From positions 101,083 to 165,082 of the forward strand of contig CANQQY010000002.1 in assembly GCA_947626105.1 (NCBI GenBank): 64,000 nt of DNA, read 5' to 3'. The DNA comes from an uncultured Clostridia bacterium. Its GTDB lineage: Bacteria > Bacillota > Clostridia > Christensenellales > Borkfalkiaceae. Under the pieces are notes generated by a model. The model was not told the origin of the DNA. It saw only the letters and a list, made by a program, of their open reading frames with translations, and searched no databases. Shown in pieces: positions 4,716-63,170 of this stretch (positions within the stretch are counted from its first letter, which is position 1; the number at the start of each line of letters is the position of its first letter). Position numbers and translations under genes: made by a program.

Positions 4716-5882
4716 TCAGAGTTCGATCTTCATGTCGTCCTTCTTGATCCAGCCGATTTTGCGGAGAAGTTCGCTCACGCCGAACGCGATCGCGGCGGGA
4801 AGCACAAAGCAAATCAAAATCACGCCCAAAACGAGCCGCCATGTCGGGATCACGCCAGCGGACGCGCCCACCATGTCGATGACCCCCACGAGTCCCGCGG
4901 TACCCATGCCCGCGCCGACCGCTGTCGCCTGCAAACCGAACACGCATGTGGACATGGGGCCCACGACCGCGGAAGCGACGACGGCGGGGATCAAAATTTT
5001 AGGATTCTTCAAATTGGGAATTTGGAGCATGGAAGTCCCCAGCCCCTGCGCAATGAGTCCCGAAACTCTGTTCTCGCGGAAGCTCGCGACCGCAAACCCG
5101 ATCATATGCGCGCAGCAGCCCGCGACGCCCGCTCCTGCGGCGATCCCTTTGAGCCCGATGGAGACCCCGACCGCCGCGCTCGAGGTGGGAAGGGTCAACA
5201 GAAGCCCCATCACGACCGAAATGATGAGCCCCATCAGGAAGGGTTGGAGTTCGGTCGCCGCGTTGATGCCCGCGCCGATCTTGCCCATGAGCCATTCGAC
5301 GGGGGTGCCGAGCGACGCCGCGATGAGCCCGCCCGAGAGCATGCTCACGAGGGGCACGATCAAAATGTCGAGCTTCGTCTTGCCCGTCACAAGAGTGCCG
5401 AGCTCGCAAGCGACGACGACGGCGAGATAGCAAGTGATGGGATTCCCCGTCCCGACGAGGACGGAGGCGGAGAGCTTACTAAGGTCGCTTCCCGTGATAT
5501 AGTTGATCAACGTCGTAGCGTTCGCCGCAAAAATGCCGACGGCGACGCTGCACGCCATCACCATTTTGGGGCATTTGAAGGCATAGGCGATCCCTACCCC
5601 GATCCCCGCGCCCATCATGATCTTGGCGAACGTCCCGATTCCGTTCAAAAAACGGTAGCAGAGGTTGAGAAACTCTACCCCGCTTGTCCCGTCCCCGAAG
5701 AGGCGGGCGATCTGGCAGACGATCGTCCCCGCGATGAGCGTGCAAAAAAGCCCGTTCGCCATTCCCGCGAACGCGACGATAAAATACCTGTTTGCAAATT
5801 TTTTGAGAAGCGGCTTGACCTTCGGAGCTTTTTCAGGCTCTGTTTCGGGCTCTTTTTTTGCTTCTGTTTTAGGTTCTTCCAT
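4716..5882 (-). CDS. Polytopic membrane protein, PTS EIIC_2-like (tentative)
   Basis: 388 aa, Gly/Ala-rich multi-TM protein with a K/E/P-rich N-terminal tail. The resemblance to PTS_EIIC_2-type permeases is from memory only. Confidence 0.45.
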   Translation of the reverse strand: MEEPKTEAKKEPETEPEKAPKVKPLLKKFANRYFIVAFAGMANGLFCTLIAGTIVCQIARLFGDGTSGVEFLNLCYRFLNGIGTFAKIMMGAGIGVGIAYAFKCPKMVMACSVAVGIFAANATTLINYITGSDLSKLSASVLVGTGNPITCYLAVVVACELGTLVTGKTKLDILIVPLVSMLSGGLIAASLGTPVEWLMGKIGAGINAATELQPFLMGLIISVVMGLLLTLPTSSAAVGVSIGLKGIAAGAGVAGCCAHMIGFAVASFRENRVSGLIAQGLGTSMLQIPNLKNPKILIPAVVASAVVGPMSTCVFGLQATAVGAGMGTAGLVGVIDMVGASAGVIPTWRLVLGVILICFVLPAAIAFGVSELLRKIGWIKKDDMKIEL

Positions 5883-5962
5883 AATTGTATGGTATCATAG
5901 CACAAAAAGGGCGGGAATGCAAGCATTTTTTGAGATTTATGCGCTCCGCGGTTTGAAAGGCG

Positions 5963-6586
5963 CTACGCCCCGCTTCCCGAAAGATATCCCCTGACGAAGG
6001 AGAGAGGCAAAACTTTTGCGCCCTTCCCGAGGACGGCGCCGGGGGCGAGCACGCTGTTACAGCCCACCTGCGCGCCGTCTCCCGCAAACGCCCCTACCTT
6101 ATAGCGTCCCGTGGGGTATTTTTTCTCTCCGCGGATCAAAACCTCCCCGCGGTCGAGCCGCACGTTCGCGCAGACCGCCCCTGCGCCGAGATGGGCGCGG
6201 AAGCCGAGAATGCTGTCTCCGACATAGTTGAAATGCGGGACTTCCACGCCGTCGAACAAAATGCAATTTTTGAGTTCCGTGGAATTCCCGACGACGCACT
6301 TTTCCCCGACGAGGACGTTTCCGCGCACAAATGCGCCGCTCCGCACCTGCGTGCCCGCGCAGATGACGCAGGGCGCATGCAATTCCGCCGTCGGAGCGAT
6401 TTTCGCCGTACCATGTACAAAGACCCCCTCTCCGATTTCCAGAAATTCTTTGCCGAGCTTTTCCGGAAGAGAGCGCAAAAACGCCCCGAGGCCCCCGAGC
6501 GCTTCCCACGGATAGGTGAATTGTTTCAAAAAATCTTCGGCAAGCGTATGCGAAAGGTCGTAGAGCGCGGAAATTCTCAGATCCAT
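5963..6586 (-). CDS. Left-handed beta-helix (hexapeptide repeat) protein, GlmU C-terminal-like
   Basis: Repeated [LIV]-G-x-x-x-x hexapeptides, e.g. VGEKCVVGNSTELKNCILFDGVEVPHFNYVGDSILG. Confidence 0.55.
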   Translation of the reverse strand: MDLRISALYDLSHTLAEDFLKQFTYPWEALGGLGAFLRSLPEKLGKEFLEIGEGVFVHGTAKIAPTAELHAPCVICAGTQVRSGAFVRGNVLVGEKCVVGNSTELKNCILFDGVEVPHFNYVGDSILGFRAHLGAGAVCANVRLDRGEVLIRGEKKYPTGRYKVGAFAGDGAQVGCNSVLAPGAVLGKGAKVLPLSFVRGYLSGSGA

Positions 6587-6678: not shown

Positions 6679-7584
6679 ATGATCAAAACTGCGCTCAAAA
6701 ATTTCTTCGGCAATCTCGTCAATCTCTTTATTCCGATGGGGATCATCTATCTTTTCTTGCTCCTCGCGATCTTTGTCTTTCTCTCCGTCTTTTTGCAATC
6801 AAGTACGGAGATGATCGAACAGCTCGTTTCCCTGATCGAGGACTCCTCGGGAAAATCGAACGTCACCATCACGGAATTTCTGACTTTTGCGGTCGACCGT
6901 CTCGACACGAGCGGCGGCTTTTTCGACGCGATCGGGCAAATCTTTGACGGCGACTGGATCGGAGAGACGGTGCGCGGGTTCTTCCGCTCGCTCGGCGCGG
7001 GAAGCGGAGACTTCGAGGGACGGCTCAACGAGATCGTCGAAACGTATGTCGGAAAGCTGGGCGCCTCTCTTTCCGTCTCGGTCGTATTTATGTCCCTCGG
7101 GATCATCCTCGGATTTTATGCGACGGGTTACGCCGTGCGGCGCCGTTCGGCAAAGCGTGGATTCAAAAGGACGATCATTGCGCATACCGTCGTCCCCATT
7201 GCGGAGACGCTCATCATCGTCGGATGCCTGTTGCTCCTCAATGTCATCCGCTATTACAGCTTGCTCGTTCTCATCGTCAGCCTCATCTTTATGGGGATCG
7301 TCAACCTGACGAGCTCGTGGATCCTCTTCGGCAAGGGGAAGATCCCCTTCAACCGGATCGTCAAGGGGAAGAACATTCTGCTCCACATCGCCGTGATCGG
7401 GATCATCGGCGTGCTTGTGCTCGCCATCGCCGCGGGACTCTTTATGATCGACCCGCTCCTCGCGATCCTCCTCATGATCCCCATTCTCGTCTATTCGCTC
7501 GTCATCCTCGACGTCAATACGGATTCCTATGTCTCCCATCTGGCGGAAAAGTATGAGGGCGCGACGGAAAAGGAAAAGGCATAA
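6679..7584 (+). CDS. Integral membrane protein of unknown function
   Basis: 301 aa with several hydrophobic spans. GGAG lies 8 nt upstream of ATG 6679. I recognise no family. Confidence 0.6.
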   Translation: MIKTALKNFFGNLVNLFIPMGIIYLFLLLAIFVFLSVFLQSSTEMIEQLVSLIEDSSGKSNVTITEFLTFAVDRLDTSGGFFDAIGQIFDGDWIGETVRGFFRSLGAGSGDFEGRLNEIVETYVGKLGASLSVSVVFMSLGIILGFYATGYAVRRRSAKRGFKRTIIAHTVVPIAETLIIVGCLLLLNVIRYYSLLVLIVSLIFMGIVNLTSSWILFGKGKIPFNRIVKGKNILLHIAVIGIIGVLVLAIAAGLFMIDPLLAILLMIPILVYSLVILDVNTDSYVSHLAEKYEGATEKEKA

Positions 7585-49844: not shown

Positions 49845-50834
49845 TCACTCTTCTTCCGTCTGTTTTTGCTTGCCGACATATTTTGCCTTTCCCTTCCGCG
49901 AGAACTTATCGAAGCAACGCTTGACGGGAATATGAAGGGCGGGGCCGAGCAGGAGAGAAGAGTAGAGCGCGACCGCCACGCAGAGAAGCATGGGCAGGAA
50001 GAACGCTCTCACGCCCGCCGTGGCAATGACGCCGCAGAGCAGGAGCGCGACCGCGACAATTCCCGCAAAGAGAAGGATCTTCTTCCAGGAACTGCGGAAA
50101 CTCTCTTCGACTGCCTCCTCCGCGCCGACGGAGCCTTGCGACTCCTTCTTGATATCGCGGAGCTTCATGCAATGGATGAGCCAGAACACGACGAAGAGCG
50201 CTGCCGCGATCCCCGCATACAGGACGGGAGCCGCTGCATACACGGGAATACGCGTGATGGCGAAAATGGAGAGCGTAAAAAGCGCGTCATGCACGGAAAG
50301 GGCAAGCCCCGTGAGCGCACTGCCGACGCCGAAGCGGAAGCCGACATATACGAGCGCCACGACGAGCCCGACCGCGATCGCACCGCGCCAGACGGCGCCC
50401 GCGCCGCTCTGCAAAGCCTCATGATGCCATACGGTATAGACTTCGGTGAGAGGTTCTTTGAAGAGTTCCTTCACGCCCGCGTCAATGTCTTCCTTCACTT
50501 TTGCCTGCGTTTCGGCGGAGACGTCGGGGGAGAACTTGAACACAAAGGCGTCCCAGTCCTGTCCGTCGCCCAAGCCCTGCGTCTTTTGCATTTCGCAGGC
50601 GGAGATATTGTTCTTTCCGAACACGTCCTCGCAGAGAGTTTCAAGCTGCTCCTGCGGTTCTTCGGACTTGATGATGGTGATATTATACCGAACTTCGAGT
50701 TGCAGGGTTTCGGGATCGTCGGAGGCGGTATTGAAGCCGAGAAGCGCCATCAGGATCACACCGGCAATGATGACGACCGCCGAGACTGCAAGCCAGATTT
50801 GCAGAAGTTTCCAAGGTCTGAAATTCTTATTCAT
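49845..50834 (-). CDS. secF: Protein translocase subunit SecF
   Basis: The real start MNKNFRPWKLL overlaps the secD 3' end by 8 nt. Six TM spans with the SecD/F C-terminal pattern. Confidence 0.8.
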   Translation of the reverse strand: MNKNFRPWKLLQIWLAVSAVVIIAGVILMALLGFNTASDDPETLQLEVRYNITIIKSEEPQEQLETLCEDVFGKNNISACEMQKTQGLGDGQDWDAFVFKFSPDVSAETQAKVKEDIDAGVKELFKEPLTEVYTVWHHEALQSGAGAVWRGAIAVGLVVALVYVGFRFGVGSALTGLALSVHDALFTLSIFAITRIPVYAAAPVLYAGIAAALFVVFWLIHCMKLRDIKKESQGSVGAEEAVEESFRSSWKKILLFAGIVAVALLLCGVIATAGVRAFFLPMLLCVAVALYSSLLLGPALHIPVKRCFDKFSRKGKAKYVGKQKQTEEE

Positions 50835-52350
50835 CTTCGACCTCCTCTCTCTTGAAGTTGCAGAAGGCTCCCTTCTTCGGGGTGTACGCCATGAGGATCG
50901 CCCAGTTGAACCTGTTGACGATGAGCGCACCGAGCCCCGAGAATACCGACGTCAGGCCGAGCACAAAGGCAAAGGAGCTGAACGGAGGCAGGGCGACAAA
51001 GAAGGTGAAGAAGCCGATGAGCGCAAGCACGATGTGCAGGTCGAAGAGCTTCCACATGCACTTCTTATAACCCGTCTTCACGGAAGACGTCATTGTCTTG
51101 CCGAGCGCATATTCCTTCCGCGCGTTTTCAAACGTGATTGCATCCGAAACGCTGAGGAGCACAGACGTCAGAAGGAACGCCGTGAACGTCTCTGTGCTCA
51201 GCGTCAGGAACGGGATCGCCCAAACGCAGAGGACGGAAGCGCACACAAAGAGCAGGTAGGTATACAGATGCGCAAACGCCAGAAGGCGGTATCTCACAAA
51301 GAAGAACACCAGCATGACGAGCGTGAGCACCGCATAGACGATATAGAGCATCATGAGCGCGTTCTCGCCGTACTGCGCGTGGTGAATGGTTTGATCGGCG
51401 ATCTTGAAGGTAAGATCGGTCGAAACGCTGTTGAGCGTGGTATCGATGAGGATCGAGCGAGTCTTTGCTTCCATCTCGGTCATTGTCGTGCTCGAGATCG
51501 TGAGCGAACTCTCGTCGAGAGGCTGGGACACGCCCATGGGAAGGATCGTGGTATCTCCGATCATGAAGAAGATCGTGAGAGTCGCGTCTTCCGTCGCCCC
51601 TTCCGTTGCGGTGCGAAGCGCAGCCCTGCCCTTCTCCGTAAGTTCGATGGTGACGGCGCTCACCCCGTTCACGCCCGAACGGGTCCCCGCGCTCTTGACA
51701 TAGTCGCTTATGACGTCATCCTTTCTCTCGGTCGCGGGCATGATCTGCGTCGCGGAGGAAGCGTCGCTCCCCGAACCGCTCTTGATGACGAGATCTTCCG
51801 TGTAGGAGAAATACTCAAAGCAGGAAGTGTACGCCTGAGGCGAAGTGTACGCCTGAGGCGCAAAGACGCGGATCGTGTAGTCGTCGAGCACGCTCACGCG
51901 GACGTCCTCTTTGCCGAGGCGCTCAAAGCGCTCCGTGACGAGCTCCGCCGCATTTTGGAAGTCCGCCGCAAACGTTTCATTGGGCTTCCCATCCTCGAGC
52001 TTGATCTTGTCCTTCTCGAAATAGAGAGAACCGACCTTGCCGTACTTTTCCGCGTACTTGGTCTTGTCCGCTTCGTTTTCTTTACCCCCGAGCGTCGCTT
52101 CATACTCCTCCGCGGAGATGACGCCCTCGGGATAGTAGACCACGGAATAACCGCCGCCGAGATATCTTTCGCTCTTGTCGTCTTTTCCGCCGTAAGCCAT
52201 ACCGAGATCCGCGTCTTTATCCGTCATTGAAAGAATGGAATTAAACGTGCTGATATCGCTCACGGGAAAGGACACGAAACATATCAGACATAATCCGGCG
52301 ACCAACAGGGTCATGAGTACCAAACAAATCGCCGATTTTACTTTGCTCAT
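50827..52350 (-). CDS. secD: Protein translocase subunit SecD
   Basis: 507 aa: N-terminal TM, a large periplasmic-type domain and a C-terminal 5-TM bundle. GGAGGAGG lies upstream. Confidence 0.8.
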   Translation of the reverse strand: MSKVKSAICLVLMTLLVAGLCLICFVSFPVSDISTFNSILSMTDKDADLGMAYGGKDDKSERYLGGGYSVVYYPEGVISAEEYEATLGGKENEADKTKYAEKYGKVGSLYFEKDKIKLEDGKPNETFAADFQNAAELVTERFERLGKEDVRVSVLDDYTIRVFAPQAYTSPQAYTSCFEYFSYTEDLVIKSGSGSDASSATQIMPATERKDDVISDYVKSAGTRSGVNGVSAVTIELTEKGRAALRTATEGATEDATLTIFFMIGDTTILPMGVSQPLDESSLTISSTTMTEMEAKTRSILIDTTLNSVSTDLTFKIADQTIHHAQYGENALMMLYIVYAVLTLVMLVFFFVRYRLLAFAHLYTYLLFVCASVLCVWAIPFLTLSTETFTAFLLTSVLLSVSDAITFENARKEYALGKTMTSSVKTGYKKCMWKLFDLHIVLALIGFFTFFVALPPFSSFAFVLGLTSVFSGLGALIVNRFNWAILMAYTPKKGAFCNFKREEVEDE

Positions 52351-52482: not shown

Positions 52483-53778
52483 CTAAATTTCTTTTGATTT
52501 GCGTGCAGCGAGCACCCGCATGGCGCACTCGACGCGTTTTTTCATCATCGCGCAGGTGATCTCGTACGGTTTTTCGATGTCGCCGTTGAAGTGATAGTTG
52601 TTCGCGCTGCATCCGCCCGAGCAGATGAACTTCGCAAAACAGTCCTTGCACTTCTCCCGCGTGAACAGACAGCTGTTTGCGAATTTCCCCCTGATCGCGG
52701 GATCGAGCGTCCCTTCGAAGACGTTGCCCATCTTCCATTTGGGATCCCCCGCAAACTGGTGGCAGGGATAGATGTCGCCGCTGGGCACGACGGAGAAATA
52801 TTCGTTCCCCGCGCCGCAGGCGGAGACCCGCTTTTCGAGGCAGGGTCCCCCTTCGAGATCCACATTGAAGTGGAAGAAGTTGAAGCCCTTCCCCTCCTTT
52901 TCGCGCTCGATATAGGCGTCGCAGAGGGCGTCGTACTCCTGTTCGATGACGGGAAGATGCTCCTCTTTGATCTCCAAATCGGGGATCTCCGTGACGACGG
53001 GCTCCACCGAAAGGGAATCGAAGCCCTGATCGGCGAGGAAGAGCACGTCTTTCGAAAAATCGAGATTCTTCGCCGTAAATGTGCCCCGCACATAATAGTG
53101 CTTGTCCCCTCTCGCACGCACGAACTTTTTGATCTTTTCGATCACGGCGTCGAAGCTCCCCTTGCCGTTCACCGTCTTGCGCACTTCGTCGTGCACCTCT
53201 TTTCTGCCGTCGAGGGAAAGGACGACGTTCTCCATCTCCTCGTTGAGGAATCGAATGGTCTCGTCGTCGAGAAGAAGGCCGTTCGTCGTCGTCGTGAAGA
53301 GGAAGCGCTTGCCGCGCTTTGCCGCTTCTTCCTTGGCATAATAGACGGTGCGTTTGACGACGTCGAAGTTCATGAGCGGTTCGCCGCCGAAGAAGTCCAC
53401 TTCGAGCACTTTTCTCTTCCCGCTCTTTTCGAGGAGGAAGTCGATCGCCGCCTTCGCCGTTTCAAAGGACATCATCTCGCGCGCGGCATGGTAGGCGCCC
53501 TCGTCCGCAAAGCAATATTTGCAGCGAAGGTTACAATCGTGACAGATGTGAAGGCAGAGCGCCTTGATCTCCTCCCGCTTGATGGGACGGGCGTCCGTTT
53601 CGGGGGCGTCCAAGAGTCCCTCCGCTTTCAGAGCGGCGATCTCGGCGAGCTCTTCGTCCGTGAGACAAACGGGCTCCCCCCCGAGATACTTCGCCGTGCG
53701 CTCGTCTGCGACGTGCAGACTGCCGCTGCCCGTGTCGTAAACGTAATAATCGTCGTGGTATTGAAAAACGTGTATCAT
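52483..53778 (-). CDS. scfB: Radical SAM/SPASM thioether-forming SCIFF peptide maturase
   Basis: CHDCNLRCKYCF radical SAM motif, C-terminal SPASM cysteines (CGAGNEY..; CKDCFAKFICSGGC), and position directly downstream of a SCIFF precursor. Confidence 0.85.
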   Translation of the reverse strand: MIHVFQYHDDYYVYDTGSGSLHVADERTAKYLGGEPVCLTDEELAEIAALKAEGLLDAPETDARPIKREEIKALCLHICHDCNLRCKYCFADEGAYHAAREMMSFETAKAAIDFLLEKSGKRKVLEVDFFGGEPLMNFDVVKRTVYYAKEEAAKRGKRFLFTTTTNGLLLDDETIRFLNEEMENVVLSLDGRKEVHDEVRKTVNGKGSFDAVIEKIKKFVRARGDKHYYVRGTFTAKNLDFSKDVLFLADQGFDSLSVEPVVTEIPDLEIKEEHLPVIEQEYDALCDAYIEREKEGKGFNFFHFNVDLEGGPCLEKRVSACGAGNEYFSVVPSGDIYPCHQFAGDPKWKMGNVFEGTLDPAIRGKFANSCLFTREKCKDCFAKFICSGGCSANNYHFNGDIEKPYEITCAMMKKRVECAMRVLAARKSKEI

Positions 53779-53835: not shown

Positions 53836-53991
53836 TTACTTCTGCCCGTCGATCTTCTGTTCCCTCGTAATGCGCTCGCAGGACTGGTTCCCAACCGTGC
53901 AGCTGGTCTTGCAGGCGGATTGGCAGGTGCTTCTGCACTCACCGCAGCCGGTGATCTTTTTTTCCTGGGGCTTTGCAATCGTCTTGATCAT
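53836..53991 (-). CDS. scfA: SCIFF (six cysteines in forty-five residues) ranthipeptide precursor, 51 aa
   Basis: Not in the ORF track. Translation MIKTIAKPQEKKITGCGECRSTCQSACKTSCTVGNQSCERITREQKIDGQK carries the family core GCGEC..SCQSACKTSCTVGNQ.CE. GGGAG lies 6 nt upstream of the ATG. Confidence 0.9.
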   Translation of the reverse strand: MIKTIAKPQEKKITGCGECRSTCQSACKTSCTVGNQSCERITREQKIDGQK

Positions 53992-54481: not shown

Positions 54482-55093
54482 TCAATCTTTCGTTTCTTCC
54501 CTTTGGGCTCCGTCCGCCCTTTCGGGCGCGGCTTCCTCGGGCTTTTCGGGCGCTTCGGAAGGCTCGGAGGTCTCGGGCGTTTCGGGCGCGGGATCCTCTT
54601 TGGCGGCGAGTTTTGCCTCTTTCTCCGCCTTCCTTCTCAATTCCGCCTCCTCGCGCGCAAGCTGGGTGGGGCCCTTGGCGTCCGTCTCGAAGATGCACTC
54701 CTTCATGAGCTTGAAGTGAGATTTTCCCGAGGCTTCGCTGCCCGTCTCGATGATGACGGTATTGTCGTCGCAGACTTCCACGACGATCCCGCAGAGCCCG
54801 CCGCGGGACTTCACCTTGTTCCCGGGTCTGATCGCGTCGATCTGCTCGACATATTCTTTGTCCCTCGCGCGGTTCTTTCTTCCGGAGAGAAAGAGCCAGC
54901 CGATGATGAGCACAAAGAGCGCGACGACCACGATGGTCAGCGGCCAGTTAAAGGTCGAACCGCCGCCGTCCTTGTTCTGATCGTTGGTTTGGTTGTCTGT
55001 GGGCTGTTCGGTTTGTTCGCCCTCGGCGGTTTCCGCCCCGAGGAGCTCCGCGCCGTGGACAAGTTCATAGGTTTCGGATACTTGTAATCTCAT
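54482..55093 (-). CDS. yajC: Preprotein translocase subunit YajC with long N- and C-terminal tails
   Basis: Core LFVLIIGWLFLSGRKNRARDKEYVEQIDAIRPGNKVKSRGGLCGIVVEV. AAGGAGA lies upstream. Confidence 0.8.
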   Translation of the reverse strand: MRLQVSETYELVHGAELLGAETAEGEQTEQPTDNQTNDQNKDGGGSTFNWPLTIVVVALFVLIIGWLFLSGRKNRARDKEYVEQIDAIRPGNKVKSRGGLCGIVVEVCDDNTVIIETGSEASGKSHFKLMKECIFETDAKGPTQLAREEAELRRKAEKEAKLAAKEDPAPETPETSEPSEAPEKPEEAAPERADGAQREETKD

Positions 55094-55194: not shown

Positions 55195-56349
<1,155 letters not shown>

Positions 56350-56845
56350 TTATTTCGCTAATTTCTTTGCTCGTCCGCGCGTAAGGCCTACCCCTTGGGG
56401 TGGAGGCTCCCTAGGAGGAACCATGCCCCCTCCTGAGGAGGGGGAGAGGGGGGTGGGCAAGACCTGCCCCTGTTTACGGGGGCGGGTGGCGCGCAAAGCG
56501 CGTCAGGTGGGGGTTTCTTGCTTCCCCTCTTAGGGAAAATTTTGCACTTCTGCCAAAGATTGATAATCTTTGGCGCAAAATTTTCTTGGCATTTGCCCAT
56601 TTGTTCGGGCAAATGCTGACCGAACGCGGGTCTCTACCCGCGTGAGACAGTACCCGCGCAGCGGGGGATAGGGTTTCAAAACCCCTCTGTCACTCACTGC
56701 GTTCGTGACATCTCCCCTAAGAGGGGCGACTAGATCCTCTGTCACTCACTGCGTTCGTGACAGCTCCCCTACAAGGGGCGACAAGATCCTCTGTTGCTCA
56801 CTACGTTCGCGACAGCTCCCCTACAAGGGGCGCCGAGGGGGGCTC
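56350..56845. repeat. Intergenic mosaic repeat cluster R10
   Basis: Degenerate D end, family F and G units, family E unit, then three 52-nt tandem family A units reaching to within about 12 nt of the queA stop. Confidence 0.85.
56517..56674 (+). repeat. Family E unit, left arm of an inverted pair flanking queA
   Basis: Its reverse complement matches 58643-58800 at 157 of 158 positions (hand alignment). Internal hairpins: GCCAAAGATTGATAATCTTTGGC, GCATTTGCCC..GGGCAAATGC and CGCGGGTCTCTACCCGCG. Confidence 0.9.
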
Positions 56846-56856
56846 CATGTCGCCGC

Positions 56857-57876
56857 TTAAAGGAACAGGCACGCGTCGCCGAACGAGAAGAAACGGTATC
56901 TCTCTTTTACGGCGATCTCGTAGACGGACAAAATTTCCTCGCGGGAGCAGAGGCAGCTCACGAGCATTAAAAGCGTGCTCTCGGGAAGGTGGAAATTGGT
57001 GATGAGCGCATCCACGCACTTCATCTTATAGGGCGGATAGATAAAGATGGAAGTATCGCCGCTGCCCGCCTGTACGGTGCCGTCGTCGCGGGCGACCGTC
57101 TCGAGCGTGCGCACCGAGGTCGTTCCCACGCAAATGACCCGTCTCCCCTCCCGCTTTGCCGCGTTGATCGTCTCCGCCGCCTCCGCGCTCACCTCATAGT
57201 ATTCGCTGTGCATGACGTGCTTTTCGACGTCGTCCACTTTGACGGGGCGGAAGGTGCCGAGCCCCACATGGAGAAGCACTTCGACGATCTCGACCCCCAT
57301 CGCGCGGATCTTATCGAGAAGTTCGGGCGTGAAATGGAGCCCTGCGGTGGGAGCCGCCGCCGAACCGTTTTCACGGGAATAGACCGTCTGATAACGTTCG
57401 GGATCCTTTAATTTTTCATGGATATAGGGCGGAAGAGGCATGGCGCCGACACGGGAGAGGATCTCCTCAAACGCGCCTTCGTAAAAAAACCGTACATGCC
57501 GCTCGCCCGATTCGGTGACGGAGAGCACTTCGAGCGAAAGTTCCCCGTTTACAGTCAATTTCGTTCCCGGGCGGCACTTCTTCCCGGGGCGGACGAGGAC
57601 TTCCCATGTGTCGAGCTCCAAACGTTTTAAGAGCAGGATCTCGACTTTTCCGCCGTTTTCCGTCTTGGCGAAGAGGCGGGCGGGAAGCACGCGCGTGCGG
57701 TTGACGACGAGCACGTCCCCTTTTTTGAGGTAATCGGTGACATCGCGGAAAATGCGGTGGTCGATGCGTTTTGTGTCCCGATGATAGACGAGAAGCCTCG
57801 CGCTGTCCCGCGGGTTTGCGGGCGTCTGGGCGATGAGTTCTTCGGGCAGTTCATAATAAAAATCGGAGGTTTTCAT
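56857..57876 (-). CDS. queA: S-adenosylmethionine:tRNA ribosyltransferase-isomerase
   Basis: [20 protein letters not shown]-terminus; 339 aa. Confidence 0.9.
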
Positions 57877-57886
57877 AGGAGAAGTT

Positions 57887-58063
57887 GTTTCGCTCGATTT
57901 CTTTGCTGCGCAAAGAAATACGAGCGAGGGGTTAAGTTTTTTGCGTTGTAATTACAATTCGGCCGCCCCTTTTCTGTTTCACAGGACAGTAAGCCGAAGG
58001 GGTTCGGCAAATTGAGTCGCCCACGGCGGAAGTGAATTCCGCCTAAGGCTAGTAATTTCAAAC
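57887..58063 (-). repeat. Family D multi-hairpin element, copy D6
   Basis: GTTTCGCTCGATTTCTTTGCTGCGCAAAGAAATACGAGCGAGGGGTTAAG ... GCCGAAGGGGTTCGGCAAATTGAG ... GGCGGAAGTGAATTCCGCC ... AGTAATTTCAAAC. Confidence 0.85.
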
Positions 58064-58065
58064 TT

Positions 58066-58294
58066 GTTTCGCTCGATTTCTTTGCTGCGCAAAGAAATAC
58101 GAGCGAGGGGTTAGTTCTTTTGCCTTGTAAAAGCAATTCGGCCACCCCTTTTCTGTTTCACACGACATGAAGCCGAAGGGGTTCGGCAAATTGAGTCGCC
58201 CTACTTCGCCCTGCGGGCTCGTGCCGCGCTTAGTGCAATAGAATGCGCGCGGGGCGGCGGAAGTGAATTCCGCCTAAGGCAAGTTATTTGGAAC
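58066..58294 (-). repeat. Family D multi-hairpin element, copy D7 (with an insertion of about 60 nt)
   Basis: Same ends as D6. Extra segment around 58198-58256 (GCCCTACTTCGCCCTGCGGGCTCGTGCCGCGCTTAGTGCAATAGAATGCGCGCGGGGC). Confidence 0.85.
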
Positions 58295-58296
58295 TT

Positions 58297-58467
58297 GTTT
58301 CGCTCGATTTCTTTGCTGCGCAAAGAAATACGAGCGAGGGGTTAAGTTTTTTGCGTTGTAATTCGGCCGCCCCTTTTCTGTTTCACAGAACATTAAACCG
58401 AAGGGGTTCGGCAAATTGAGTGCGCTGCCGCAAAAGCGTGGTTTTGCTTCGCGCAGTGATTTAGAAC
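58297..58467 (-). repeat. Family D multi-hairpin element, copy D8
   Basis: Same 5' stem as D6/D7. The distal hairpin is of the TGCGCTGCCGCAAAAGCGTGGTTTTGCTTCGCGCA type, as in D1/D2. It ends with GTGATTTAGAAC. Confidence 0.85.
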
Positions 58468-58642
58468 AGAGTCCACCCTTGTCGCCCCTCTTAGGGGAGA
58501 TGTCACGAACGCAGTGAGTGACAGAGGATTCTTGTCGCCCCTCTTAGGGGAGATGTCACGAACGCAGTGAGTGACAGAGGGGTTTCCGAAACCCCTTTCC
58601 CCTCACTTTGTTCGGGGACTTCCCCTAAGAGGGGCAGCGAGG

Positions 58643-58800
58643 ACCCTATCCCCCGCTACGCGGGTACTGTCTCACGCGGGTAGAGACCCGCGTTCGGTCA
58701 GCATTTGCCCGAACAAATGGGCAAATGCCAAGAAAATTTTGCGCCAAAGATTATCAATCTTTGGCAGAAGTGCAAAATTTTCCCTAAGAGGGGAAGCAAG
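58643..58800 (-). repeat. Family E unit, right arm of the inverted pair flanking queA
   Basis: See 56517-56674. Track ORFs 56388..56612(-) and 58705..60000(+) share an identical 32-aa N-terminus because of this repeat. Confidence 0.9.
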
Positions 58801-58845
58801 ATAAGCCTTTGCCCTGCGGGTAAAAGGGGAAGCAAGGCGAGCATC

Positions 58846-59892
58846 CTATTCATCGAACACAGAGAGCTGTTTTTTGACGGATTCGGGCATCTTTATGCCC
58901 ATGTGTTCATAGCCGCCTTTCAGGCAGATCCTGCCGCGGGGCGTGCGGGCGATAAAACCGAGCTGGATAAGGTAAGGCTCGTAGACGTCGAGAATGGTGT
59001 TGACGTCCTCGTTGATCGTCGCGGCGAGCGTATCCAGCCCCGCGGGCCCGCCGTTGAATTTTTCAATCAAGGCGCGAAGCAGATTTCTGTCCGTCTCGTC
59101 GAGCCCGAGCCCGTCGATCTCCATTTTGCGGAGCGCGCTGTCCGCGTCCTCTACCGTGATCGCACTGCTCCCGCGCACGGCGGAAAAGTCGCGCACCCTC
59201 TTCAAAAGCCTGTTCGCGATACGGGGAGTCCCGCGGCTGCGGCGGGCGATCTCGTAGCTTCCGCCTTCCTCGACGGAGATCCCGAGCGTCTTTGCCGAAC
59301 GCGCAACGATCTTTTGGAGCTCCGAAGGGGTATACATGTCGAGGCGGCACATGATGCCGAACCTGTCGCGCAGGGGGCTCGAAAGCATGCCCGCCCGCGT
59401 CGTCGCCCCGATCAGGGTGAACCGTTTGAGGGGGAGGCGGATATTCCGCGCCATGGGTCCCTTCCCCACGATGATATCGAGGGCGTAATCCTCCATGGCG
59501 GAATAGAGCGTTTCCTCCACCGTGCGGTTGAGGCGGTGGATCTCATCGATAAAGAGGACGTCGCCCTCGTTCAGATTGGAGAGAATGGCGGCGAGATCCC
59601 CCTGCCGCTCAATGGCGGGTCCCGAAGTCAGTTTGATCTGCGCGCCCATGGTGTTTGCAATGATGTGCGCGAGCGTCGTCTTTCCGAGCCCCGGGGGGCC
59701 GTACAGGAGAACGTGGTCGAGCGCCTCGCCGCGCTGCTTTGCCGCCGCCATGTAGACTTTGAGGTTCTCCTTGACCTTATCCTGCCCGACGTAATCTTCG
59801 AGCGTCCGCGGGCGGAGAAGGTTTTCCTCCATGTCGTATTCATTTTTTTCGCCGGAGAGGAACCGCTCCCCGCCGAATTCTTCATCAAACAT
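58846..59892 (-). CDS. ruvB: Holliday junction branch migration helicase RuvB
   Basis: [14 protein letters not shown] Walker [11 protein letters not shown] Walker B; 348 aa. Confidence 0.95.
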
Positions 59893-59902
59893 ATGTCACT
59901 CC

Positions 59903-60505
59903 TCACATGCCTTTCAGGGCGGCGGCAAGGATCTCCTCGACGCTCTTCGCGCCGCCGCCGCGGGCGCGCTCGACGGCACGGACGCTCTCCTGCCGCGTAA
60001 ATCCCAGCCCCATCAGCGCGGAGACCGCCTCGTCGTCCGAGGGATCTGCGGGCACGGACGCCCTGACCCCCCCGCCGTCTGCGCCGAGAAGTTCGTCCGC
60101 GGAGATCTTTCCGTGAAGTTCCAAGATGATGCGTTCCGCCGTCTTTTTGCCGAGCCCCTTGACGGCGCACAGCCGCTTGCTGTCTGCGGAGGCGATCGCC
60201 TCGGAGACCTCCGAGGGGCGCATGGAGGAGAGCACGCTCATCGCAAGCCTTGCCCCGACGCCCTGCACGGACGTGAGCCGTAAAAAGAGCGCCTTCTCCT
60301 GCGGATCCGCAAAGCCGAAGAGAGTAACGTCGTCCTCCGACACTTTGAGATAGGTATACACCTCTCCCTCTTCCCCTTTGGGAACGCCCGAGAGGCGGGA
60401 AAACGCCGCGCCCGAGCATATGACTTCATATCCCACCCCGCCCACTTCGACGAGCACGTACGATGGATCCAGATATTTTACCGTTCCTTTCAAGTAACCG
60501 ATCAT
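59903..60505 (-). CDS. ruvA: Holliday junction branch migration complex subunit RuvA
   Basis: MIGYLKGTV... followed by the HhH segment VQGVGARLA. Confidence 0.9.
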   Translation of the reverse strand: MIGYLKGTVKYLDPSYVLVEVGGVGYEVICSGAAFSRLSGVPKGEEGEVYTYLKVSEDDVTLFGFADPQEKALFLRLTSVQGVGARLAMSVLSSMRPSEVSEAIASADSKRLCAVKGLGKKTAERIILELHGKISADELLGADGGGVRASVPADPSDDEAVSALMGLGFTRQESVRAVERARGGGAKSVEEILAAALKGM

Positions 60506-60536
60506 AGAAAACTCCTTACTTTTTCGGCGGGAAAAT

Positions 60537-61034
60537 CTATCTTACGCCGAACAGCGACGAAAATCTGCTGGTAAACGCATGGCAGAGCGCGACGGCGAGG
60601 GCGTCGGCGGCGTCGTCGGGACGGGGGATCTCTTTCAGGCGCAGATGGGAAGCCGTCACCCGCTGCATCTGCTGTTTATCCGCCGCCCCGTAGCCCGTGA
60701 GCGCCTGTTTGATCTGGTTGGGGGTATACTCGAAGATCTTCCCGCACCGCTTGTTGCAGGTGAGAAGCATCACCCCTCTCGCATGGGCGACGGCAATGCC
60801 CGTCGTGATGTTTTTGGAGAAGAACAGCTCCTCCATGGCGGCTTCCTCGGGCGCGAATTTATCGAAGATCGCATTGAGCTTTTCTTCGAGAATACACAGC
60901 CTGACGGGAAAACTTTCGCCCGCGGGCGTTTTGATTGCGCCGAAGTCCACGGGGAAGCAATTCCCCCGCGCGTCCTTTTCGATGACGCCGTATCCCATCG
61001 TGCCGTATCCCGGATCAAGCCCCAAAATGATCAT
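60537..61034 (-). CDS. ruvC: Crossover junction endodeoxyribonuclease RuvC
   Basis: MIILGLDPGYGTMGYGVI and the C-terminal DAADALAVALCH. Confidence 0.9.
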   Translation of the reverse strand: MIILGLDPGYGTMGYGVIEKDARGNCFPVDFGAIKTPAGESFPVRLCILEEKLNAIFDKFAPEEAAMEELFFSKNITTGIAVAHARGVMLLTCNKRCGKIFEYTPNQIKQALTGYGAADKQQMQRVTASHLRLKEIPRPDDAADALAVALCHAFTSRFSSLFGVR

Positions 61035-61040
61035 GCGTTT

Positions 61041-61070
61041 ATTTTACAATAAAAAACGCCTTTCTGTCAA
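61041..61070 (-). promoter_or_regulatory. Promoter with leaderless geometry for ruvC
   Basis: Minus strand reads TTGACA, 18 nt, TAAAAT (61046-61041), then 6 nt and ATG 61034. No Shine-Dalgarno site. Confidence 0.45.
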
Positions 61071-61077
61071 GGGACGC

Positions 61078-61106
61078 TTGCTTTTTTTCGGGAAAAGATG
61101 TACAGT
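61078..61106 (+). promoter_or_regulatory. Promoter of the YggS-family gene
   Basis: TTGCTT, 17 nt, TACAGT. It overlaps the track ORF start at 61098, which argues for the start at 61125. Confidence 0.45.
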
Positions 61107-61124
61107 AATTGCGGAGAAAACAAC

Positions 61125-61835
61125 ATGATCGAAGAAAACGTCCGTAAAATCTTACACGAGATCGAAGGCGGCAACGGGAAGGGAGAGAAGATCACTCTCG
61201 TCGCCGCGACCAAGACGCGCACGCCCGAAGAGATCTGCCGCGCGGTGCAGGCGGGGATCGAAGCGGTCGGCGAAAACAAGGTGCAGGAGTTTTGCGCCAA
61301 ATATGACCTGATCCGCGGCGCAGAGCGGCACTTTATCGGCAATTTGCAGACGAATAAGGTGAAATATCTCATCGGACGGTGCGATCTCATCCACTCGGTG
61401 GGCAGCATGCGCCTTGCGGAGGAGATCTCCCGCCTGTCCGTCCGCGGAAACGTCACGCAGGACATCCTCATCGAGATCAACGTCGGCGGGGAGACGTCCA
61501 AGGGCGGCTTCCCCTATGAAGAGGCGGAAACCGCGCGCAGACAGATCTCCGCGCTCGGCGGGATCTCCGTCAGGGGCTTTATGGCGATGCTTCCCGAAAG
61601 CGGCGATCCCTCCCTTCTCACCCCTCTCGCAGTAAAAATGCGCCGCCTCTTCGAGAGTGCGCGGGAGAGCGACGAAAAAATCTCTTTCCTCTCTATGGGA
61701 ATGAGCGGCGATTGGCGTCTGTGCGTAGAGCAGGGCTCCAACATGATCCGCCTCGGCACGGCGATCTTCGGGGAGAGAAACTATGCGCGGGACTTGCCGC
61801 ACGGCACGGTTATTTCCCCTTCCGACGGGGAATAA
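61125..61835 (+). CDS. yggS: YggS-family pyridoxal phosphate homeostasis protein
   Basis: LVAATKTRTPEEI, FIGNLQTNKVKYL and MGMSGD motifs. GGAG lies upstream of ATG 61125. Confidence 0.85.
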   Translation: MIEENVRKILHEIEGGNGKGEKITLVAATKTRTPEEICRAVQAGIEAVGENKVQEFCAKYDLIRGAERHFIGNLQTNKVKYLIGRCDLIHSVGSMRLAEEISRLSVRGNVTQDILIEINVGGETSKGGFPYEEAETARRQISALGGISVRGFMAMLPESGDPSLLTPLAVKMRRLFESARESDEKISFLSMGMSGDWRLCVEQGSNMIRLGTAIFGERNYARDLPHGTVISPSDGE

Positions 61836-61854
61836 ATGAGGAGAAGGAGAACTT

Positions 61855-62688
61855 ATGCCGTCCGCTATCACACATGAACTCATTGCAAAGAGCGCCCTCG
61901 CCCTGCTCCCGAAAGAGGAGCGGGCCTGTGCGGAAGCCGCGCCCGATTATTTTTATCTCGGGGCGCAGGGTCCCGACCTCTTTTTCTTCTACCGTCCCCT
62001 CTCGAAGGAATACAACTTCGGGAAACTCTTGCACCGCGGAAGGCTGTACGAATGGTTCTCCGCGCTCCTCGAAGGCCTAAAAACGCGGCAGGGGGAGACG
62101 CTTGAAAAGTGCCGCGCCTATGCGCTGGGCTTTTGCACCCACCTCGAGGGGGATTCCGCCTTCCACCCTTTCGTCTATACCTATATGGAGGAGAACGACC
62201 TCAAAAAACGGGAGCACCAGCGGATCGAAAACGATTGGGACGTCTATTTCGCGGCGACTTTGGAAGAAAAGACGGTCTATGGGTACGATTTCCCCTTCGA
62301 TCTGAAAAAAATCGCCCGCGAAGGCGTCCTGTACGAGTATGTCTCCGAAGCCGCCGCCCGCATGGGCAGAACGTTTGAAAAGAGAGCGTTTTCGCAGATG
62401 ATGCTTCTCTTCCGCCGCTACCTCATTCATTTCCACAAGAGACATCTGCGCTTTCTTTTGCCCTTTGCCTCCAAACTCTACCCCAAAAAGATCCCCGATC
62501 AAGGCGTGATCGGGGGAGAAGAATTTTTCAGGCAGAGCGGAGAAAAGGCGGCGGACGCGGACGACTTATTCCTCGCCTCGGCAGACGCCGCCGCCCGCCG
62601 CATGCAGGATTTTTTGCGTGCGGCGGAAGGGTCACCTCTCCCCCATACCTTTTCGCGCCATCTCTTGACGGGGGAAATCATGGAGTGA
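61855..62688 (+). CDS. Zinc-dependent phospholipase C-like family protein
   Basis: 277 aa. N-terminal SAITHELIA and GAQGPDLFFFY His/Asp motifs. Assigned from memory of the family. Confidence 0.45.
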   Translation: MPSAITHELIAKSALALLPKEERACAEAAPDYFYLGAQGPDLFFFYRPLSKEYNFGKLLHRGRLYEWFSALLEGLKTRQGETLEKCRAYALGFCTHLEGDSAFHPFVYTYMEENDLKKREHQRIENDWDVYFAATLEEKTVYGYDFPFDLKKIAREGVLYEYVSEAAARMGRTFEKRAFSQMMLLFRRYLIHFHKRHLRFLLPFASKLYPKKIPDQGVIGGEEFFRQSGEKAADADDLFLASADAAARRMQDFLRAAEGSPLPHTFSRHLLTGEIME

Positions 62689-62691
62689 GGG

Positions 62692-63170
62692 GGCAGATAA
62701 GGCTCCTCCCAAGGAGGAGCTGTCACCGCAAGGTGACTGAGGCGGGCATCTCGGCGCCCCTTCCAGGGGAGCTGTCTCGAACGTAGTGAGTGACTGAGGG
62801 GTTTCGAAACCCCTTTCCCCCTCGCAAGCTCGGGGGACTTCCCCTAAAAGGGGCAGCAAGGAATAAGGTGACGTAATCAGAACCATTGCCCACCCCCTTA
62901 ATCCCCCTCCTCGGGAGGGAGCATGGCTCCTCCCAAGGAAGAGCTGTCACCGCAGGTGACTGAGGTGGGCACGCTCTAAATCACGGTGCGAGGCGGGTTT
63001 CCCGCCGCTGCACGCCCACATTTGGCACCCTACGGGAGCCTTAATGTCCTGTGAAACAGAACGGGGACGGCCGAATCGCTTCTACAAGGCAAATGCACTA
63101 ACCCCTCGCTCGTATTTATTTTGAAAGTCCGCCCTACTCGGGCGGACTTTCATAAAGAAATCGAGCGAAA
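62692..63170. repeat. Intergenic mosaic repeat cluster R12
   Basis: Family A modules (GAGGGGTTTCGAAACCCCT), a family F unit (GAACCATTGCCCACCCCC...GGGAGGGAGCATGG), and D9. Confidence 0.85.
62973..63170 (+). repeat. Family D multi-hairpin element, copy D9
   Basis: GCTCTAAATCAC, then GGTGCGAGGCGGGTTTCCCGCCGCTGCAC, ATTTGGCACCCTACGGGAGCC, CCTGTGAAACAG, GGCCGAATCG, and CTCGCTCGTATTTATTTTGAAAGTCCGCCC..GGGCGGACTTTCATAAAGAAATCGAGCGAAA. It abuts the queH stop. Confidence 0.85.

Follow-up and report, generated by a model that had tools for sequence, protein, structure and literature searches.

The queA locus and its inverted repeat

The 64,000-nt stretch of DNA analysed here (the window; contig CANQQY010000002.1 of an uncultured Clostridia bacterium) holds queA, the gene for tRNA preQ1(34) S-adenosylmethionine ribosyltransferase-isomerase, between two inverted, almost identical copies of a repeat that we term family E. 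queA lies on the minus strand at 56857..57876 (NF001140, 483.5 bits against a cut-off of 324), with ruvB (58846..59892, minus strand) upstream of the right-hand copy and tgt (55195..56343, minus strand) downstream of the left-hand copy. An earlier note on this DNA had described a 158-nt inverted repeat, identical at 157 positions, that encloses queA and three units of another repeat, family D. The repeat search of the window revealed that this inverted repeat is real and one base longer at each end: the arms, at 56516-56674 and 58643-58801, measure 159 nt, are reverse-complementary at 158 of 159 positions and stand 1968 nt apart, with queA and the three D units between them. The left arm (56516..56674) is a full-length E on the plus strand in the queA-tgt spacer, antisense to the queA/tgt transcript. 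The right arm (58643..58801) is a full-length E on the minus strand, sense in a ruvB read-through transcript, and begins 44 nt past the ruvB stop codon. These are the only full-length copies of E in the window, as had been noted before.

The sole difference between the arms, read on the plus strand, is C at 56659 against A at 58658 (GCTGCGCGGG / GCTACGCGGG in the earlier note). It falls on the middle loop base of the last hairpin, CCCGC-GNA-GCGGG, a position that varies in other members of the family as well. Homology between the two sides runs beyond E. Past a 62-nt indel, 56679-56734 and 58530-58585 are 98% complementary, and this stretch consists of a GGGTTTC..AAACCCC palindrome and one 52/53-nt unit of a further repeat, family A. 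Once this homology is counted, the arms are composites of about 215-330 nt. Three tandem 52-nt A units with GTCAC-N11-GTGAC and CCCCT-NNN-AGGGG hairpins lie on the inner side of the left arm (56684..56839, plus strand), and two tandem 53-nt A units lie inverted on the inner side of the right arm (58478..58580, minus strand), where they are 94-98% complementary to left units 1-2. The right cluster alone has an extra 62-nt module between E and its A units (58581..58642, minus strand), and the three tandem D units (57882..58432) are placed between queA and the right-hand A units. No promoter or terminator scored above chance in the ruvB-queA and queA-tgt spacers.

Because a repeat-rich metagenome assembly may join contigs wrongly at a collapsed repeat, and short-read contigs of public runs break at every repeat cluster, the second arm could in principle have come from such a mis-join. 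Three European Nucleotide Archive (ENA) contigs from different samples match the window at 100% (58349..56636, 58025..56516 and 58025..56782); they reproduce queA, the A units and the left arm and confirm the inner junction of that arm. A fourth ENA contig, L107, which corresponds to 63123..58579 at 99.8%, carries ruvB and the whole right arm with both flanks, including the specific inner flank. Furthermore, the outer junction on the tgt side is crossed at single-copy depth by two Logan contigs of run X1, covering 56485-56528 and 56499-56545. No second assembly was found that holds the left arm together with both flanks, because the contigs with yajC end inside tgt and the exact Tgt protein matched no record. 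Given the independent ENA assemblies and the single-copy junction contigs, an assembly artefact is therefore very unlikely as the source of the arms, and we give a mis-join hardly any weight.

Family E is a chain of hairpins built from a frame and an optional core

The arms had been described as a chain of hairpins, and all of the hairpins named at that time are present. E was predicted to fold strongly into a five-hairpin chain on either strand (-71.3 kcal/mol, z = -6.2, on the plus strand; -69.5 kcal/mol, z = -7.3, on the minus strand). In the left arm, all on the plus strand, these are H0 (56525..56535, CCCT-CTT-AGGG), which precedes the core in the great majority of listed copies; H1 (56534-56585), an extended hairpin with the inner palindrome GCCAAAGATTGATAATCTTTGGC at 56552-56574; H2 (56587-56616); H3 (56624-56643); and H4 (56653..56665, CCCGC-GCA-GCGGG), a cassette that is variable across the family and holds the difference at 56659. 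When 35 full copies were aligned, 94.7% of cells were paired, and 14 pairs had changed on both sides, compared to 6.0 +/- 0.8 in shuffles and 2-5 in controls with slid partners. Compensatory changes were found in H3, which occurs as ACGCGGG/CCCGCGT, ATGCGGG/CCCGCAT and GGGCGGG/CCCGCCC, and in the outer stem of H1 (AAATTTTGC/GCAAAATTT versus GCAACGCG/CGCGTTGC). The hairpins of E are thus maintained by compensatory changes.

The boundaries of E were defined from the flanks of about 90 listed copies. Nearly all of them open with a hairpin of the form CTYGC..CCCCT-NNN-AGGGG adjoining unique DNA, and the outer edge of the inverted repeat in the window is therefore the family's own 5' boundary. The last (3') hairpin is an exchangeable cassette, and in one subfamily of E the sequence switches to another 3' module past position 83 of the 112-nt core query, which corresponds to E position 107. 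A short form, a frame that lacks the 112-nt core so that the last hairpin follows immediately on the first (...AGGGGAA|GT...), was also found in the queA-tgt spacers of relatives and at nine sites of the window; a metagenome contig with the same 112-nt skip joins 56539 to 56652. E therefore consists of a common frame, with H0 as its 5' and H4 as its 3' part, and an optional core of about 112 nt (56540..56651, plus strand) that is placed as a cassette between them. This build explains why the ends of E recur in the window even though the full unit occurs there as one pair. The nine empty frames, each with a CCCCT-NNN-AGGGG hairpin joined to GT and a 3' hairpin, are at 1266, 22126, 27279, 33954, 33994, 35178, 45059, 58634 and 62853; the one at 58634 (minus strand) is the extra 62-nt module of the right cluster. 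Nine frames without and two with a core (both at queA) were counted in the window, and 77 empty and 56 filled frames in the fetched loci of relatives.

We looked for marks of a mobile element or of a known RNA. The repeat search found no terminal inverted repeats joining the two ends of E, and comparison of short and full forms revealed no target duplication at the frame/core junctions. Rfam gave no match on E, returning only two sub-threshold microRNA look-alikes at 58537-58635. No copy of E split at the kilobase scale, as an 'autonomous' form would be, was present in the fetched loci, where the gaps between E parts are just 60-90 nt.

E is dispersed through the spacers of related Clostridia

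A collection of species-representative genomes was scanned with the E hairpin GCCAAAGATTNNNAATCTTTGGC; the window's own contig was not among the matches listed. The scan yielded at least 103 stretches, and all but two of those listed belong to nine 'Lapin' (rabbit) species of uncultured Clostridia represented by metagenome-assembled genomes. BLAST with the whole arm established that the listed stretches are true copies of E, with at least 8-23 copies per relative genome among the matches listed. E is thus multi-copy in at least nine related species. In the rabbit-gut metagenome runs that contain the window, the words of the E hairpin reached a summed depth of 390-545 compared to 4-5 for unique flanks, an excess of about 100-fold in a depth that mixes organisms. 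Viral contigs gave zero matches to the hairpin pattern, and contigs of Joint Genome Institute (JGI) metagenomes gave only eight chance matches, covering no more than the 23-nt palindrome.

The placement of E cores was analysed with a gene caller that scores codon usage and reproduces known genes. The results showed that 89 of 92 cores are intergenic. A preliminary figure of 40 of 92 cores 'inside genes', obtained with a stop-to-stop open-reading-frame caller, was an artefact of that caller and was replaced. Of the genes flanking the cores, 42 pairs are co-directional (27 cores sense, 15 antisense), 16 convergent and 1 divergent, so that 58 of the 59 fully classified cores sit in co-directional or convergent spacers. 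Relative to the gene that reads into them, 50 cores are sense and 42 antisense; this lack of an orientation bias argues against a strictly strand-specific role as RNA. Inverted pairs of E also stand 2.5-3 kb apart around other genes, at L075:4118-4275 (plus) and 6792-6949 (minus) and at L084:2553-2676 (minus) and 5856-6018 (plus); within each pair the identity is about 93% at most. Genes other than queA are therefore bracketed by E as well. The earlier note had stated that the flanking of queA would be coincidental if E turned out to be a common dispersed repeat, and this is largely what E is.

The bracket around queA differs between species and strains

The gene order ruvCAB-queA-tgt-yajC-SCIFF was conserved across the relatives examined, and queA shares the orientation of ruvB and tgt at each of the five loci examined (L110 to L114). 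It is likewise co-directional with ruvC (60537-61034), ruvA (59903-60505), ruvB, tgt and the yajC-like gene (54482-55093) in the window, all on the minus strand, as is the gene for the SCIFF maturase (52483-53778) at the end of the string. No recombinase or transposase was found among the genes of the window between 50.8 and 64 kb, which are ruvCAB, queA, tgt, yajC, a DUF3792 gene, the SCIFF maturase gene, a YggS-like gene, a zinc phospholipase C-like gene (Zn_dep_PLPC), queH and one unknown.

Near-identical inverted ends around a gene are the layout of a composite transposon, and the earlier note had suggested a composite element built around a housekeeping gene; in such an element the arms would delimit a mobile unit with queA as its cargo. 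The layout is all that speaks for it. The arms contain no open reading frame, and thus no transposase frame of their own; no transposase is encoded between 50.8 and 64 kb; queA keeps its place in the conserved gene order in every relative examined; in relatives just one arm is present, or neither; and one of the two is missing from a conspecific strain. We regard a composite transposon as exceedingly improbable.

Only L112 (Lapin-024__bin61, L112:733-890) has a full E downstream of ruvB that matches the right arm in position and orientation. None of the four relatives that cover the queA-tgt spacer (L111 to L114) has a full E in it, and L110 ends inside queA; the spacers of L111 and L112 contain an empty frame only, in the opposite orientation. 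L110 comes from a conspecific strain, with a ruvB about 99% identical, an identical RuvB protein and 99.65% identity over the first 287 nt of queA, and in it other modules replace the E and the A units of the right arm. L125, a second contig of the L110 strain type, differs from the window right after the queA stop codon. At other shared sites, too, clusters differ wholesale between the window and its closest relative. Collectively, the absence of the left E from relatives and the differences of L110 and L125 indicated that the bracket around queA is neither conserved between species nor fixed within the species, and that the E content of spacers turns over fast between species and even between strains.

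The ruvB-queA module set of this strain type (L110:1870-2670 and L125:1-470) contains no E and no A units, and the number of D units varies, with three in L110 and two in L125. The replacement of about 280 nt in L110 and L125 resembles a string of modules downstream of queA in Lapin-005__bin37 (L111:5200-5470).

Inversion of the enclosed segment and pairing of the arms in RNA

Two functions for the bracket were considered. The first is an invertible segment, in which RecA-type recombination between the arms would flip the 1.97-kb stretch with queA and the D array in a measurable fraction of cells and so switch expression. With 159 nt at 158/159 and a further 56 nt at 98%, inverted and 2 kb apart, the homology exceeds the length generally needed for homologous recombination, and a low-frequency event is physically plausible. 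The absence of a promoter-like site above chance between ruvB and queA means that orientation could matter for expression. Known programmed switches (fim, hin and the gut 'invertons') combine short inverted repeats with a dedicated recombinase encoded next to them, usually turn a promoter rather than a whole housekeeping gene, and occur in both orientations in populations. The queA segment resembles them in its flanking inverted repeats and departs from them in the rest: no invertase, that is, no serine or tyrosine recombinase gene, lies between 50.8 and 64 kb, an entire housekeeping gene, not a promoter, lies between the arms, and a single orientation is seen in the window and in L107, the two assemblies in which an arm is covered together with its flanks on both sides, a minority orientation being below their reach. 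Moreover, queA is co-directional in all five relatives, and with one arm missing from the conspecific strain the layout is not conserved. Joints between 'opposite strands' in Logan contigs were considered as a sign of inversion and rejected, as they occur at multi-copy depth and come from other copies of the repeat; Logan contigs break at repeats, and words shorter than the arm do not distinguish the two orientations. We consider an expression switch of this kind unlikely, and a programmed or selected inversion of queA is unsupported, as nothing suggests it. General homologous recombination over about 159-215 nt of near-identical inverted DNA could still invert queA occasionally.

The second is an RNA device, in which the arms would pair within a ruvB-queA-tgt read-through transcript to give a stem of about 160-270 bp with queA as its loop, making an RNase III-type processing site or altering translation or stability of the queA message. 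When the 2.5-kb RNA between the ruvB stop and the tgt start (56344-58845, minus strand) is folded at minimum energy, all 159 arm positions do pair with each other, as do 268 positions in the extended arms, with a predicted duplex of -332 kcal/mol compared to -141 kcal/mol for arms folded locally, a comparison of thermodynamics only. The spacers, without terminator or promoter above chance, are compatible with such a transcript. Against this, strong local hairpins would be favoured during transcription and ribosomes on queA would be expected to oppose a long-range stem; neither the sister species nor the 99% identical strain has the arrangement; and E has no family-wide preference for one orientation relative to transcription. 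We consider an RNA device unlikely too, if anything slightly more so than an invertible segment.

Age and origin of the pair

The earlier note had read the near identity of the arms as a sign of recent duplication or ongoing gene conversion. The arms are indeed each other's closest copies (99.4%), followed by the copy at the same place in L112 (97.5-98.1%) and a copy in bin37 (about 97%), and the queA-tgt spacer is free of a full E in L111 to L114. Recent copying is also supported by the lower identity among most full copies inside a single relative genome, typically 85-95% (median values 92-94%), but pairs at 98.6-100% exist, one relative holding pairs of E at 100%. The argument from identity is further weakened by the slow evolution of E. 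The right arm is 97.5% identical to L112:733-890, although third codon positions agree at 85.9% in ruvB and 83.5% in queA, and the 44-50 nt from the ruvB stop codon to E are only 57% identical between the window and L112. An identity of 99.4% between the arms is thus less extreme than it looks. The contrast of 97.5% with 84-86% at third positions suggests that E is either under purifying selection or homogenised by conversion.

Because the sister species has E downstream of ruvB, while no relative covering the queA-tgt spacer has a full E in it, the ruvB-downstream copy is the older of the two. Recent copying is the best reading of the pair, with the right arm as the probable source: the left copy was most likely derived recently from the right copy or from a source shared with it. 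Copying would have followed whichever process shuffles the modules: on the one hand mobilisation of hairpin DNA in trans, on the other gene conversion or a template switch that relied on the frame and A-unit homology which the clusters had in common beforehand.

Other genes at the locus

The DUF3792 gene also belongs to the minus-strand genes of the cluster from ruvC to the SCIFF maturase, and the YggS-like, Zn_dep_PLPC and queH genes lie farther right in the window. A protein of 507 amino acids is encoded at 50827-52350 (minus strand) with good coding statistics and no Pfam family at E <= 1e-5. Just upstream of the gene for the radical SAM maturase, a 51-amino-acid product with the Pfam SCIFF family is encoded at 53836-53991 (minus strand) in the window and at L112:5223-5378, L113:7825-7980, L114:5702-5857 and L115:2268-2423; the calls in relatives and conspecific contigs support a separate earlier note on a SCIFF precursor missed there. 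Two relatives have a gene of the Pfam family LRR_5 (BspA-like leucine-rich repeats; about 250-263 amino acids) inserted in the ruv-queA string (L111:1469-2260 and L114:630-1382), where its neighbours are ruvA and ruvB in one relative, ruvB and queA in the other; the window is without it.

Discussion

We consider it likely that a single dispersed hairpin-chain repeat without coding content, E joined to A units, accounts for both arms, each being one copy of it in a mosaic system that fills the spacers of an uncultured rabbit-gut Clostridia lineage and resembles the repetitive extragenic palindromes (REPs) and bacterial interspersed mosaic elements (BIMEs) of Proteobacteria. The inverted bracket around queA would then be a by-product of copying and not a device.

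REP, BIME and REPIN systems have been described by Nunvar et al. (2010, PMC2817692), Bertels and Rainey (2011, PMC3116915) and Di Nocera et al. (2013, PMC3733652). E and its neighbours share with REPs and BIMEs the non-coding palindromic modules, probably also in high copy number, the mosaic clusters in spacers downstream of coding regions, the occurrence of units in both orientations with adjacent inverted units able to pair, and the fast turnover of content. Their placement is similar too: according to Di Nocera et al. (2013, PMC3733652), most REPs lie in spacers of co-directional or convergent genes and few in those of divergent ones, as does E with 42, 16 and 1 cores, respectively. The same paper gives the REP unit as a 20-40-bp palindrome, one end of which carries GTAG or CGTC as an unpaired tag, and measured against that description E differs in being a 159-nt chain of five hairpins that are flanked by AGT, ACG and similar, with no GTAG or CGTC; the neighbouring A units begin with TGTC. 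E also differs from REPs and BIMEs of Proteobacteria in its host, a Clostridia lineage. No RAYT or IS200-type tyrosine transposase was found in the part of the window looked at (50.8-64 kb).

Miniature inverted-repeat transposable elements (MITEs) such as Correia of Neisseria, RUP and ERIC/IRU (Delihas 2011, PMC3184786) are similar to E in being non-autonomous, intergenic and 100-200 nt long, and are often co-transcribed and fold into long hairpins; unlike in them, neither terminal inverted repeats nor a target-site duplication was seen in E. Compared by description only, the E system is also like a Firmicutes repeat in being intergenic, non-coding, strongly structured and composed of few module types in variable number and order. 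This is BOX of Streptococcus pneumoniae, in which boxA, boxB and boxC modules follow a fixed A-(B)n-C grammar. The core cassette inside a pair of frame hairpins and the exchangeable 3' hairpin set E apart from it.

Several observations weigh against the mosaic-repeat reading. The conservation of E at the shared ruvB-downstream site, far above that of synonymous sites, hints at a selected function. No clean pair of filled and empty orthologous sites shows the boundaries of an insertion or target duplications, and the left cluster is wholly unlike those of relatives, so that the copying may have been transposition-like or may have come about by conversion or a template switch. Finally, the copy number and identity spectrum of E in the window's own genome are inferred from relatives and from a metagenome depth that mixes organisms.

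A second possibility, to which we assign a minor but real share, is that the 112-nt core would be a discrete selected element, a cassette that enters one position of the frame, directly 3' of the CCCCT-NNN-AGGGG hairpin, without terminal repeats or target duplication, and that keeps 97-98% identity despite about 15% synonymous divergence between species, with compensatory changes in its stems. If so, E would represent an undescribed hairpin-guided mobile element that moves as single-strand DNA, or a structured RNA family, in gut Clostridia, and at queA the copying would have been caught soon after it took place.

For the annotation of the locus, a false lead is removed, the queA bracket being in all likelihood neither a gene switch nor a transposon; the same layout is to be expected by chance wherever repeats of the E type are dense. 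Such mosaic repeats break short-read assemblies at nearly every spacer and, since they differ between strains that are 99% identical, they may serve as strain markers. In summary, an uncultured lineage of rabbit-gut Clostridia carries a rich and fast-changing set of mosaic repeats like the REPs and BIMEs, a type familiar chiefly from Proteobacteria, and the strong conservation and covariation of the E core may reflect a real function or a novel route of mobilisation.

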